Sequence record: OR906198.1
Length of the DNA: 64,000 nucleotides
Strand: one strand, 5' to 3'
DNA from: Escherichia phage BP32
The position numbers were made by a program, and so were the translations under genes. The notes under the pieces are model-generated. The model worked only from the letters and a program-made list of their open reading frames with translations, searched no databases and was not told the origin of the DNA. Positions within the stretch are counted from its first letter, which is position 1. Each line of letters begins with the position of its first letter. Positions 21,076-31,953 of this stretch are shown piece after piece.

Positions 21076-21333
21076 ATGAAAACTTTCAAAGAGTTTGCTA
21101 CAAAAACTACTATCACTGAATCTTCTCACGGTATGGAAGTAAAGCTTGGAATGGCTTTAGCTGAAGCTGAGCGTCTTTTCTCTCGTATTAAAGAACTTGC
21201 TGCTGCAGTCGATCCTTCATCTTTTAAAGGAGACCAAACTAAAGTTAAAGCGCTTTTAGCATTATGCTCTGATGCAGGCGAAATCGCTAAGAACGGTTCT
21301 AAGATGAAGAAACGATTAGAAGATTTAAAATAA
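21076..21333 (+). CDS. internal-protein-like ORF at ipI locus
   Basis: 85 aa; N-terminus MKTFKEFATKTTITE resembles the capsid-targeting leader of T4 internal proteins with an I-x-E prohead-protease site; located after 57B. Confidence 0.6.
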   Translation: MKTFKEFATKTTITESSHGMEVKLGMALAEAERLFSRIKELAAAVDPSSFKGDQTKVKALLALCSDAGEIAKNGSKMKKRLEDLK

Positions 21334-22318: not shown

Positions 22319-22400
22319 TAACTCATATCGCACTGATTAATACCCTCTATCATCAAGGGTTCTTGTTAGAGAGCCTTTGTTAATAATTGGGAATTATATT

Positions 22401-23009
22401 ATGGATACTAAATTAGCTGAAATTTTTGAAGGAAAACATCCAAATTTTAGTACAGGAAAGCTGAAAGACAAAATAATAAAAGAAAATATTTTTCCATATG
22501 AGTGTGCAATTTGTAAAATTTCAAAATGGCAAAATAAGCATATTGTTCTGCAATTAGACCATATTGATGGAAATAACAAAAATCATCTTAAATCAAATTT
22601 AAGATTATTATGTCCAAATTGCCATTCGCAAACTGATACTTTTGCTGGTAAAAATATTAAAAATAATAAAAAGCGTTATAATGTTAGTGATGAAGAAATT
22701 TTAAACGCACTATTAAATTCGGCTACTATATCATCTGCAATTACTTCATTAGGTTTAAGTAAAGGCGGAAACTATAAAAGATTCATTAAAATTGCTAATG
22801 ATAATAAATTATATCATTTACTGGTAAATATTAATGAAAAGATTTTAACTGATGAAATTTACGAAGAATTAGTTAAAATCGATTATTCTAAATTTGGATG
22901 GGTTAGTAAAGCTGCTAAAATAATAGGTATAAGCCCACAAAAAGCTAGAAAATGGATAGAACGAAAGTGCCCAGAATTGATAGAACAATCTTTTTCACGT
23001 AATAAATAA
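22401..23009 (+). CDS. HNH homing endonuclease-like protein
   Basis: HNH motif LDHIDGNNKNHLKSNLRLLCPNCH; ORF track starts at TTG 22377, first ATG at 22401; ends 7 nt before tRNA-Leu. Confidence 0.75.
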   Translation: MDTKLAEIFEGKHPNFSTGKLKDKIIKENIFPYECAICKISKWQNKHIVLQLDHIDGNNKNHLKSNLRLLCPNCHSQTDTFAGKNIKNNKKRYNVSDEEILNALLNSATISSAITSLGLSKGGNYKRFIKIANDNKLYHLLVNINEKILTDEIYEELVKIDYSKFGWVSKAAKIIGISPQKARKWIERKCPELIEQSFSRNK

Positions 23010-28148: not shown

Positions 28149-28633
28149 TTTTAAAAACTCGCTGGTATGATTTAGATGATGGGGATGATGGCATTTCAGT
28201 TGATAGAGTTGACTGGAATGGCTGTTCCGAAGATATGAAAAATTTGTTGATTAGGGAGTTTAGAATGGGATATCAACCAGTTAAGCCATCTACTGCAACA
28301 GATGATAAATTCGTGTGTATTTATAATGGTCGCGCTAAGTTAACGAACGCTGATTGGTTCACAGATAAGATTATGATTCTGTGGTATATTATTAGTCTTC
28401 CTGTGACATCATTCGTATTTTACTTTTTTATAAAAAATCCAATGGACAGAATAGGAGATTGGATTCTTTTAACCATACTTGTTAATATTTTTACAGCAGC
28501 AATATTATCTGGGATATGGTACACGTTCATTGAAATGCCATGGCGGCTACGCAGACAACAAAAGATTTTTGATGAAAAGAAATATACTCAAAATTTAAAT
28601 AACTTTATCACTGAATGCAGGAAATTAAAATGA
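28145..28633 (+). CDS. small membrane protein, paralog family member C
   Basis: 162 aa; two TM helices; C-terminal NFITECRKLK; ATGA overlaps at both ends. Confidence 0.6.
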   Translation: MILKTRWYDLDDGDDGISVDRVDWNGCSEDMKNLLIREFRMGYQPVKPSTATDDKFVCIYNGRAKLTNADWFTDKIMILWYIISLPVTSFVFYFFIKNPMDRIGDWILLTILVNIFTAAILSGIWYTFIEMPWRLRRQQKIFDEKKYTQNLNNFITECRKLK

Positions 28634-29070
28634 AAACATTATCGGCTGGTATTATCTTTATGACAGAAGATAAAGATTTATTTATGGGTCGGGTTACTGG
28701 TTCTCGTAAGCCTGGAATGATGGCACATCGCTGGGATATCCCAAAGGGCCGCGTAGAAAATTCTGATTTAAACGCACTAGATGCAGCACGAAGAGAATGT
28801 TTAGAAGAGACTGGTTTTAGCAATTATAATCCAGACCTTCTAGAAGACCTAGGTGTATTTAAATATTCTAGTAATAAAGACTTACAGTTATTTTATTATA
28901 CGATTCCAGTAGAGCATGAGATGTTTAGAAATTGCCATTGCGAGTCTTATTTTGAAAATAAAGATGGCGTTATGATTCCAGAGATGGATGCTTTTGCTCT
29001 TATTCCTCGTACTCAGTGGCAATATGTGATGGGTCCTTCACTTTACCGAATAATGAACAGCCTCTTTTAA
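28630..29070 (+). CDS. nudE: Nudix hydrolase NudE (e.1)
   Basis: Nudix box GRVENSDLNALDAARRECLEETGF; ORF track start 28615, but ATG 28630 has AGGAAA RBS and ATGA coupling (146 aa). Confidence 0.8.
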   Translation: MKTLSAGIIFMTEDKDLFMGRVTGSRKPGMMAHRWDIPKGRVENSDLNALDAARRECLEETGFSNYNPDLLEDLGVFKYSSNKDLQLFYYTIPVEHEMFRNCHCESYFENKDGVMIPEMDAFALIPRTQWQYVMGPSLYRIMNSLF

Positions 29071-29601
<531 letters not shown>

Positions 29602-29606
29602 AGTGG

Positions 29607-29635
29607 TTTACTTTCTCCTAGAATTGTGATAGTAT
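29607..29635 (+). promoter_or_regulatory. T4-type early promoter
   Basis: -35 TTTACT, 17-bp spacer, -10 TAGTAT, upstream of denV. Confidence 0.6.
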
Positions 29636-29660
29636 ATTCACAGTTACTTGGAGGGATAAA

Positions 29661-30077
29661 ATGACTCGTATTAATTTGACTTTAGTATCTGAACTTGCTG
29701 ATCAACATTTAATCGCAGAATACCGTGAATTGCCACGCGTTTTTGGTATAGTTCGTAAACACGTGGCAAATGGTAAGCGGGTTAAAGATTTTAAAATATC
29801 TTCCGAGTTTATTTTAGGTTCTGGTCATGTTACGTTCTTTTACGACAAGTTAGAATTTTTGCGAAAGCGTCAATCAGACATTATAATGGAATGCTTAAAA
29901 CGTGGGTTTAGTATAAAAGATACTGAAGTTCCTGACATCAGCGATATTCCAGCAGAATGGAAAAATGATTATAATCCATGCAAATCAGCTATTAAATTGA
30001 GTCAACAACGACTCGATAAAAAAATTTTAATGAAGCCACACTGGTACAAGTATTACGGCAAAAATATTTACATTTAA
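29661..30077 (+). CDS. denV: endonuclease V (pyrimidine dimer glycosylase)
   Basis: 138 aa, N-terminus [29 protein letters not shown] as T4 DenV. Confidence 0.9.
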
Positions 30078-30086
30078 AGGAAACAT

Positions 30087-30560
30087 ATGAAAACATATCA
30101 AGAATTTATCACTGAAGCAGCTATTAATTCTCAAATTATTGCTGAATCTTTTACTGATCTTTTGAAATTTAAAAAAGGTCAAAAAATCACTGCTGTATTG
30201 GATGATGGTACAGAAGTTGAGATGGATGTACAGGGATATAATTATGCAGTAGATGGAAAACTGTATAATAAATCCCATGCTAAATTTGATTCATTTGACG
30301 ACTTTGTTAATACAGTTGAAGATGAAAAAACTCGTAGATCAATTTCAACTGGTGATGCTAAGGTTCTTATGGCACACGGTCATGAACGTATTCGCGCTAA
30401 ACAGAATAAAATGGGTGAAGATAATTTCGCATTAGTTGGTTATCAATCTGGTAAACAAACTTATGGCTATCAGCGTACTGCTACCATGTATAATAAAAAT
30501 GGTAAAATCGCTTTCGTGAATAGTAAAGGTTCTATTCAGTACGTCAAATCATTCAAATAA
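30087..30560 (+). CDS. internal-protein-like ORF with capsid-targeting leader
   Basis: 157 aa; N-terminus MKTYQEFITEA matches the T4 internal-protein targeting consensus with I-x-E cleavage site; body does not match ipII/ipIII as I recall them. Confidence 0.65.
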   Translation: MKTYQEFITEAAINSQIIAESFTDLLKFKKGQKITAVLDDGTEVEMDVQGYNYAVDGKLYNKSHAKFDSFDDFVNTVEDEKTRRSISTGDAKVLMAHGHERIRAKQNKMGEDNFALVGYQSGKQTYGYQRTATMYNKNGKIAFVNSKGSIQYVKSFK

Positions 30561-30713
30561 GCAAATAAGAAATATGGGAACAAGCTGGACCTCATGATTC
30601 TATGAGGGATTCCCGCCAACCTGTAATAAGGTCGAGCCCAAGTGCGGTAATGGGTAAATACAGAAATGGACAATTCACGCGCCATGGAATGGCCCAAATT
30701 TAGAGAGAATAAA

Positions 30714-31256
30714 ATGAGAACATTTTTAACTGGTCCTTATCTATCCCTGATGAATGCTTTTACACACCATTCTGATGCTAGAGTAGAAGAAATTTGTAAT
30801 AGTGGATTTTATGTACCTGATTCGCCACATTTATTTAAAGAATACTGCACACTTCGACTAGATGGTGGACGTCAATCCGGTAAATCAACTGCAGTAACTA
30901 ATTTTGCCGCTAATTGGTTGTATGACGGTGGAACAGTTATTGTTCTTTCTAATACTTCAGCTTACGCTAAAATTTCTGCGGGCCACATTAAAAAAGAATT
31001 TTCACGCTATTCTAATGATGATATTCGATTCCGTTTATTTACTGATTCTGTCCGTAGTTTTGTTGGTAATAGAGGTAGCAAGTTCAGAGGTTTATCGCTT
31101 TCGCGGATTTTGTATATAATCGATGAGCCTGTTAAATCTCCTGATATGGATAAAATTTACGATATTCATATTGAAACTGTGCACCACTGTTGCAATAGTA
31201 AATGCTGCATTGGTGGTATTACTCGTCCACAGTTTTTCATAATCGGAATGCAATGA
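30714..31256 (+). CDS. small P-loop NTPase
   Basis: Walker A GGRQSGKST and Walker B ILYIIDEP; ORF track start 30666, ATG 30714 has AGAGAGAAT RBS (180 aa). Confidence 0.6.
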   Translation: MRTFLTGPYLSLMNAFTHHSDARVEEICNSGFYVPDSPHLFKEYCTLRLDGGRQSGKSTAVTNFAANWLYDGGTVIVLSNTSAYAKISAGHIKKEFSRYSNDDIRFRLFTDSVRSFVGNRGSKFRGLSLSRILYIIDEPVKSPDMDKIYDIHIETVHHCCNSKCCIGGITRPQFFIIGMQ

Positions 31257-31582
31257 TGACAGACACGCAACTTTTCGAATATCTTTATTTTTCGCCAAAA
31301 ACTATTAAAAATAAATTGGTGAATCATTTTGAAATTTTGGCAAATAACAACGTCTTGAGCGAATTTTATCCTAAGCAATACAAATTACAAAAAGGCGTAT
31401 TCAAAGGATGCAGAGTTTTGTGCACTGCTCCTAATGCAAGATTAATGAATAAAATTCCATATTTTACCATGGAATTTATTGATGGACCTTTTAAAGGACT
31501 AATCACCCAAAGTTTAATGGCATATGATTCTGAGCCATTTTTAATTAAAGAGCAATCTTGGATAAATTTATTTTCTAATTGA
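31253..31582 (+). CDS. hypothetical protein
   Basis: 109 aa from ATG 31253, overlapping previous stop. Confidence 0.55.
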
Positions 31583-31590
31583 GAGGTTAT

Positions 31591-31953
31591 ATGAAAGCAT
31601 ATCAAATTCTTGAAGGCACGCATAAAGGTACTATTTATTTTGAAGACGGTATTCAAGCACGAATTATTGTCTCTAAAACTTTTAAAGAGGACTCTTTTGT
31701 AGACCCAGAAATTTTCTATGGTTTGCATGCCCGTGAAATTGAAATTGAAACACAGCCTACAGTTAAAATTGAGGGTGGTCAACACCTGAACGTAAACGTT
31801 CTGCGTCGTGAAACTCTGGAAGATGCAGTTAAGCATCCGGAAAAATATCCGCAGCTGACCATCCGTGTATCCGGTTATGCAGTTCGCTTTAACTCTCTGA
31901 CTCCGGAACAGCAGCGCGACGTTATCGCTCGTACCTTTACTGAGAGTCTATAA
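31591..31953 (+). CDS. autonomous glycyl radical cofactor (GrcA/YfiD-like)
   Basis: C-terminal glycyl-radical motif [27 protein letters not shown]; start at ATG 31591 (120 aa); I recall a T4 GrcA homolog (Y06I). Confidence 0.8.

Follow-up and report, generated by a model that had tools for sequence, protein, structure and literature searches.

In the 64,000-nucleotide (nt) stretch of Escherichia phage BP32 analysed here (sequence record OR906198.1, hereafter the window), the open reading frame (ORF) at 30087..30560 on the plus strand is ip4, one of the interchangeable internal-protein (IP) cassettes of T-even phages, a gene already known and long named; we regard the identification of its product as Ip4 as practically certain. 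The best explanation of this protein as a whole, which we consider probable by analogy with characterised internal proteins, is that it would be packaged in the head, processed, injected with the genome and used as a non-enzymatic inhibitor of a host defence nuclease. The original prediction, made from the sequence alone, had described an internal-protein-like ORF with a capsid-targeting leader and an unfamiliar body.

The ORF is initiated by ATG and encodes 157 amino acids (aa) before its stop codon, the protein starting with MKTYQEFITEAAINSQIIAES, as seen both in the ORF list and in the raw sequence, and an AAGGAAA Shine-Dalgarno motif lies 5 nt 5' of the ATG. Its assignment to the Ip4 / DUF7412 / PHROG 3155 family came from Pfam, PHROG and its homologues. 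The match to Pfam DUF7412 (PF24183) covered residues 1-157 of 157 on profile positions 1-158 (E-value 1.3e-95, 318 bits for a cut-off of 27), and that to phrog_3155, annotated as "internal virion protein", had an E-value of 1.1e-101. In the viral structure library, the entry UniProt Q38388 ("Ip4 [Enterobacteria phage K3]") was 98% identical to the window protein; this old accession probably goes back to the work of Repoila et al. 1994 (EMBO J 13:4181), cited in PMC12373910 and PMC4122927. Searching with tblastn, we recovered ip4 in 470 phage records, 306 of them at 95% identity or more. The gene is annotated as "ip4" in T2, "ipIV internal head protein" in PP01, "Ip4" in RB32 and "ipIV" in GiZh, and RB9 is also among the matches at 95% or more; the copies of T2, RB9, PP01 and slur08 are 99-100% identical to the window protein. 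The Ip4 of K3, T2, RB32 and PP01 are the same protein (98-100% aa identity, equal length), and the 0-3 residues separating the window Ip4 from database copies amount to nothing material. Repoila and colleagues reportedly found ten ORFs with a capsid-targeting leader at the polymorphic IP loci. The body of the protein is thus unfamiliar in one sense only: it is distinct from the T4 internal proteins, as shown below, but it is not new, given its K3, DUF7412 and PHROG 3155 matches.

In 5.8 billion proteins, the Ip4 family is made up of 14 clusters at 90% identity, all of them at least 60% identical to the query, to which a profile search run exhaustively on 1.8 billion representatives added three distant relatives (E-values 1e-17 to 1e-22) with leaders of the form MNFxxFLNE↓S (here and below, arrows mark cleavage positions, predicted or known). 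Phages bearing Ip4 infect Escherichia, Shigella, Yersinia, Citrobacter, Salmonella, Klebsiella and Serratia. The distribution is patchy and the tblastn identities are bimodal, either at least 95% or 60-80%, which indicates that among Escherichia phages Ip4 is limited to part of Tequatrovirus. We also observed, on a metagenomic T4-like contig, three adjacent ORFs with variant leaders (MNFEQFLNES, MSFTNFLNE and MKFEQFLNEA), one of which is an Ip4 relative at 35% identity; this is an internal-protein cluster of a more distant phage lineage.

The capsid-targeting sequence corresponds to residues 1-10 (MKTYQEFITE; 30087..30116, plus strand), identified by its match to the T4 leader, with a predicted cut by gp21 after E10 (I8-T9-E10↓A11). 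It differs from the MKTYQEFIAE of T4 IPII and IPIII at position 9 only. Experiments on IPIII attributed targeting to residues 4 and 7 (Y4 and F7) and processing to residues 8 and 10, the prohead protease gp21 cleaving after L/I-x-E (PMC9026906). Y4, F7, I8 and E10, that is, all of the experimentally defined IPIII determinants, are present in the ip4 leader, and its positions 8-10 form an L/I-x-E site. In the broad alignment, M1 and E10 were invariant across the whole Ip4 family, including the distant relatives at 35% identity, and F7 was nearly so, being replaced by Y in one member. A six-frame scan of the window for the leader motif returned two ORFs only, one in each known IP locus, and this result, together with the DNA identity to the T4 ip 5' regions described below, indicates that the leader is not a chance match. 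Both the reality of the 157-aa ORF and the bona fide nature of its leader with an I-x-E site, as originally predicted, were thus confirmed. The second leader-bearing ORF (21076-21333) is 100% identical to the "Ip5" of RB15 and RB32; since only Ip4 and Ip5 carry the leader, the palette of the window consists of Ip4 plus Ip5, without IPI, IPII or IPIII.

Downstream of the leader, residues 11-20 (30117..30146, plus strand) form a variable linker that contains a second candidate protease site, I18-A19-E20↓S21, recognised from the alignment and from hhalign. E20 is nearly invariant among close homologues in this otherwise variable segment, with I, L or M at -2 and S or A after it, and hhalign sets the linker site IAE↓S opposite the known cleavage site ITE↓A of IPI. 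The I18-A19-E20 site is not present in the distant Ip4 clade of the broad alignment and is therefore optional at best. We consider that a second gp21 cut after E20 is possible.

The 5' end of ip4 is shared with the internal-protein genes of T4 at the DNA level. Positions 30060-30109 are 100% identical over 50 nt (E-value 7e-22) to the 5' untranslated region (5'UTR), Shine-Dalgarno sequence and first 23 coding nt of T4 ipII, a match composed of 27 nt before the ip4 start codon and 23 coding nt, and the 38 nt at 30072-30109 are identical to the equivalent segment of T4 ipIII. The conserved ip 5' cassette thus defined by its identity to the upstream regions of ipII and ipIII (30060..30086, plus strand, including the AAGGAAA ribosome-binding site) covers the last five codons and the stop codon of denV and thus sets the C-terminus of its product, which reads KNIYI here and KAIYA in T4. 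The denV stop codon is located at 30075-30077 and ip4 starts 9 nt beyond. The gene therefore lies in the e/denV polymorphic IP locus, flanked by the ip 5' cassette, and the order in the window is nudE (28615), e (29107), denV (29661), the ip4 ORF, vs.8 (30666), vs.7 and vs.6(grcA). In T4 (NC_000866) it is nudE, e, ipIII, ipII, denV and vs.8, so that the earlier statement that the ip gene follows denV rather than e was right. The gene order of the window is found in HY01, where the ORF is annotated "internal virion protein", and ip4 likewise sits after denV in genomes of the T2/HY01 type.

The window is a mosaic segment of a T-even (Tequatrovirus) genome, with 95-97% nt identity to HY01, CrRp10, KNP5 and similar phages, and the junctions around ip4 could be located by comparison with T4. 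The region 28507-29650 is 95% identical to T4; besides nudE and e, it contains the promoter/stem-loop element found ahead of ipIII in that phage. The following gene, denV (29661-30077, plus strand), is a divergent allele with 77% identity to T4 denV at both the nt and aa levels. From position 30572, homology to the T4 denV-vs.8 spacer resumes exactly (GGGAACAA...CCTCATGATT) at 89% identity. At this right-hand junction we noticed a hairpin, CCTCATGATTCTATGAGG (30590..30607, plus strand), which is not a canonical intrinsic terminator since no T-run comes after it; the RNA folding of the GC-rich stretch downstream of ip4 was no better than that of shuffled sequence. The window lacks ipIII and ipII, and its e-denV spacer is 59 bp long. 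From this pattern, denV and ip4 look like a module swapped as one unit.

The comparison with the T4 internal proteins was made at the sequence and profile levels. BLASTP aligned Ip4 with T4 IPIII over residues 2-13 alone and produced weak gapped stretches beginning in the leader with IPII (30% identity) and IPI. With the Ip4 alignment, hhalign gave probabilities of 24% for IPI, 22% for IPIII and 68% for IPII, the last being driven by the leader; the IPII and IPIII alignments depend on the leader or on segments of low similarity. Since BLASTP and hhalign back the leader only, we rejected orthology with IPI, IPII or IPIII and conclude that Ip4 has no orthologue among the T4 internal proteins. 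The alignment with the three proteins agrees on this point with the original prediction, in which the mature sequence was said not to resemble IPII or IPIII.

Ip4 shares with IPIII its leader, apart from position 9, the cassette formed by the 5'UTR and Shine-Dalgarno sequence, its genomic setting downstream of e and the basic nature of its mature form. It differs by an unrelated mature domain and by its place, since ipIII is located between e and denV whereas ip4 comes after denV; mature IPIII is about 20 kDa and is both an inhibitor of GmrSD-ECOR17 and a contributor to head assembly. With ipII, which encodes an inhibitor of GmrSD-ECOR21 / BrxU, ip4 has in common the upstream 27 nt and, leader included, the 50 nt at 100% identity, but the bodies are unrelated and IPII has 90 mature residues, compared with 137-147 for Ip4. 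IPI*, an inhibitor of GmrS/GmrD of E. coli CT596 with a solved nuclear magnetic resonance (NMR) structure, is an injected basic internal protein whose ITE↓A site aligns with the Ip4 linker; a short DG(T/E)E hairpin gives a weak resemblance, and no sequence or fold similarity was established between the two. Finally, Bas37_0260 has the same N-terminal packaging signal, followed by a body that is novel, and is grouped here with Ip4 among the injected cassettes that act against restriction (bioRxiv 10.1101/2025.11.20.689424), but it occupies another locus, that of ipI, and we liken it to Ip4 by description, not by sequence.

The folded domain of mature Ip4 (residues 21-157; 30147..30557, plus strand) is basic and beta-rich with a helical insert. 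Depending on the cleavage site used, the mature protein would have 147 residues (16.5 kDa, isoelectric point (pI) 9.1) or 137 residues (15.5 kDa, pI 9.3). It is thus a small basic protein similar in this respect to IPI* (pI 9.0), IPII* (9.6) and IPIII* (9.7), and its basic character implies that it is no acidic DNA mimic. The alignment of close homologues shows an invariant leader, the variable linker and a highly conserved body with 49 invariant columns, and in the broad alignment the family keeps the invariant surface-type motifs NK, Q.GK and GY.RT. H64 and H99 are invariant among close homologues and substituted in the distant clade; we thus rejected them as catalytic histidines. No enzyme family was matched in Pfam (which returned the DUF only), NCBIfam or PADLOC (sub-threshold noise), and a sequence search of the PDB with Ip4 gave spurious matches only.

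The AlphaFold model of the full-length protein was mediocre, with a mean predicted local distance difference test (pLDDT) of 73. That of the mature domain, obtained with a broader alignment, reached a pLDDT of 90.5 and a predicted template modelling score (pTM) of 0.85 and displays a beta-rich structure with a three-helix insert. Structural searches found no informative analogue and no enzyme-like match, the sole weak resemblances being to small SH3, Sm, Tudor and L19-type beta-barrels. As modelled, Ip4 is compact and its fold is unlike that of an enzyme.

Divergence of Ip4 could be followed in four Tevenvirinae genera. Compared with the window proteins, identity was 71% for Ip4 and 68% for e in Melville (Gelderlandvirus, Salmonella), 68% and 66% in Mineola (Jiaodavirus, Klebsiella) and 60% and 63% in Serratia SP1 (Muldoonvirus). 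Ip4 thus diverged at the pace of lysozyme e, more slowly than nudE, vs.7 and vs.8. All 11 nt differences between the ip4 genes of the window and HY01 are synonymous (nonsynonymous divergence (dN) 0, synonymous divergence (dS) 0.12), and dN/dS is about 0.16 against the other genera: ip4 is under purifying selection. The hypervariability known for ip loci, which the original prediction had evoked, was not recovered for this gene; the locus is polymorphic in the cassette that it holds, whereas Ip4 itself is as conserved as e. In Melville, Mineola and SP1, where there is no denV, the start codon of ip4 adjoins or runs into the stop codon of e: the overlap is 14 nt in Melville and 4 nt in SP1, and the gap in Mineola is 0 nt. 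Such close contact suggests that the two genes are translationally coupled and that e was ancestrally followed by ip4, with no denV.

The promoters around ip4 were sought by homology, RNA folding and motif search. Upstream of denV, an early-promoter-like GTTTAC box is associated with a stem-loop (29606..29656, plus strand; dG -21.7 kcal/mol, z -4.5) in an element homologous to the one preceding ipIII in T4, where similar elements also precede ipII and denV. These elements are of the PeSL type, promoter/stem-loops that have been proposed to mediate modular shuffling (Arbiol, Comeau and Krisch; PMC4122927). The ipIII-ipII deletion that distinguishes the window from T4 lies between PeSL-type elements. 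Early transcripts spanning denV and ip4 probably arise from the element at 29606-29656. Upstream of e, at 29073 and 29086 (29073..29093, plus strand), the T4 late-promoter box (TATAAATA) occurs twice in its exact form, and this pair represents the nearest candidate source of late read-through across e and denV into ip4. T4 likewise has the pair before e, and neither its ipIII nor its ipII is preceded by an exact box; we rejected a dedicated ip4 late promoter because here too the exact boxes occur only upstream of e. No terminator-like site was detected on the plus strand between 28500 and 31300. Given the boxes upstream of e and the lack of a terminator between e and vs.8, early transcription of ip4 from the PeSL-type promoter is plausible, as is late transcription that begins at the e promoters and reads through. 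An Rfam search of the ip4 region gave only a sub-threshold snoRNA match inside the coding sequence.

The role that we propose for Ip4 follows from the internal proteins already characterised. Ip1 inhibits the GmrSD of CT596, Ip2 the GmrSD/BrxU of ECOR21 (both PMC12373910) and Ip3 the two-gene GmrSD of ECOR17 (PMC12373910; eLife preprint), and Bas37_0260 inhibits McrBC (HIDEN-SEQ preprint, bioRxiv 10.1101/2025.11.20.689424). All four leader-bearing internal proteins of known function thus inhibit type IV restriction, by enzymes directed at modified T-even DNA, which by analogy suggests that Ip4 is an injected nuclease inhibitor. Ip4 would be made with its 10-residue capsid-targeting sequence, by which, as in T4 IPIII, it would be anchored on the prohead's scaffolding core. 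The leader would then be taken off by gp21 after I8-T9-E10, possibly with a further trim after I18-A19-E20. The mature product, basic and of about 15.5-16.5 kDa, would remain beside the DNA in the head, its copies probably numbering in the hundreds, and would enter the cell with the injected genome. There, Ip4 would most likely bind a host defence nuclease that attacks the modified DNA as it comes in, and would inhibit it stoichiometrically without being an enzyme itself; our best single guess for this nuclease is a modification-dependent (type IV) restriction enzyme. Packaging, processing, copy number, injection and target are all inferred by analogy, with unequal confidence: that Ip4 is a packaged and processed internal protein seems highly probable to us, an anti-defence role could go either way, and type IV restriction as its specific target is a tentative proposal.

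Several observations weigh against an injected inhibitor of this kind. The proteins encoded by ip4-10 gave no reproducible inhibition of eight active GmrSD systems (Silas et al., PMC12373910, Supplementary Fig. 9), and T2, although it bears Ip4, is restricted by all three characterised GmrSD variants, those of ECOR17, ECOR21 and CT596 (PMC12373910). An inhibitor locked in an arms race with a hypervariable target would not be expected to evolve at the e-like pace seen for Ip4 across phages of Escherichia, Salmonella, Klebsiella and Serratia. No exact late-promoter box was found between e and ip4, and our literature search retrieved no text on the function, virion presence, processing or injection of Ip4. 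The negative GmrSD screens (PMC12373910) are what would be expected if Ip4 were instead an injected inhibitor of a conserved enterobacterial function other than type IV restriction. Its target could then be another defence that senses DNA, a nuclease with a housekeeping role or a factor of transcription or translation, which would explain the conservation of Ip4 across phages of seven enterobacterial host genera; the faint likeness of the model to small beta-barrels points in the same direction, such folds often binding nucleic acids or proteins. We nevertheless consider this possibility unlikely.

Ip4 could also be mainly a structural or morphogenetic component of the head, replacing IPIII where the latter is missing, with a function in core assembly and then in neutralising or organising the packaged DNA, and no specific host target. 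The conservation of Ip4 at the level of e in four genera with a low dN/dS is consistent with such a role, as are its basic character and a size nearer to that of IPIII than to those of IPI or IPII, the restriction of the leader to Ip4 and Ip5 in 64 kb without ipIII and ipII, and the abutment or overlap of ip4 with the e stop outside Tequatrovirus, which suggests fixed co-expression. Moreover, head assembly is slowed in T4 mutants of IPIII, which have a burst of about 40% of normal and form more polyheads (PMC9026906). However, IPIII is itself a specific GmrSD inhibitor (PMC12373910), so that both roles are compatible, and T4 deprived of all three internal proteins is viable (PMC9026906). Ip4 is also absent from T4 and apparently from other genera infecting Escherichia, which makes it an accessory rather than a core protein, and the motifs NK, Q.GK and GY.RT suggest a specific partner over generic charge neutralisation. 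We find a mainly structural role rather doubtful. The idea that the ORF is a decaying or non-functional cassette retaining the ip 5' recombination handle draws on the shuffling of internal-protein cassettes through conserved flanks and on the lack of a dedicated exact late promoter, but it is scarcely tenable: the exclusively synonymous differences from HY01 reveal a purifying selection that effectively refutes it, hundreds of genomes encode the complete protein at 99-100% identity, and there are a strong ribosome-binding site and a confident AlphaFold model.

Returning to Ip4 as a packaged and injected inhibitor, a more specific scenario deserves mention, which we put forward tentatively and by no means as the expected outcome. 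Unlike the fast-turnover Ip1-3, Ip4 might be an ancient, vertically inherited effector, coupled to e in several Tevenvirinae genera, that either neutralises a conserved enterobacterial factor outside the GmrSD family or doubles as an IPIII-like head-assembly protein, with a fold that has no solved analogue.

Some observations on other genes of the window can be added. The vs.8 homologue (30666-31256, plus strand), 83.5% identical to T4 Vs.8, contains a Walker-A-like motif, GGRQSGKST, and has weak matches to the N-terminal ATPase of the terminase large subunit (PHROG 2, E-value 4e-6) and to AAA domains, the Pfam matches being below threshold. The vs.6 homologue (31579-31953, plus strand) is a known and ordinary glycyl-radical cofactor of the GrcA/YfiD type (Pfam Gly_radical, E-value 2e-18; 98% identity to T4 Vs.6). 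In the trna.2/tRNA region, a 210-aa ORF (22377-23009, plus strand) with an HNH-type motif (HIDGNNKNH...CPNCH) probably encodes a homing endonuclease; the counterpart region of T4 holds the GIY-YIG endonuclease gene segB.

The window copy of Ip4 is in itself ordinary; mildly new are its e-like conservation, the possible second protease site and the confident model without analogue. Internal proteins enter the host cytoplasm before any other phage protein, and four are now known to counter type IV restriction enzymes. The model phage T2 encodes Ip4, as do hundreds of phages of E. coli, Shigella, Salmonella and Klebsiella that are candidates for therapy; naming the target of Ip4 would add a defence/counter-defence pair and help to predict host range.
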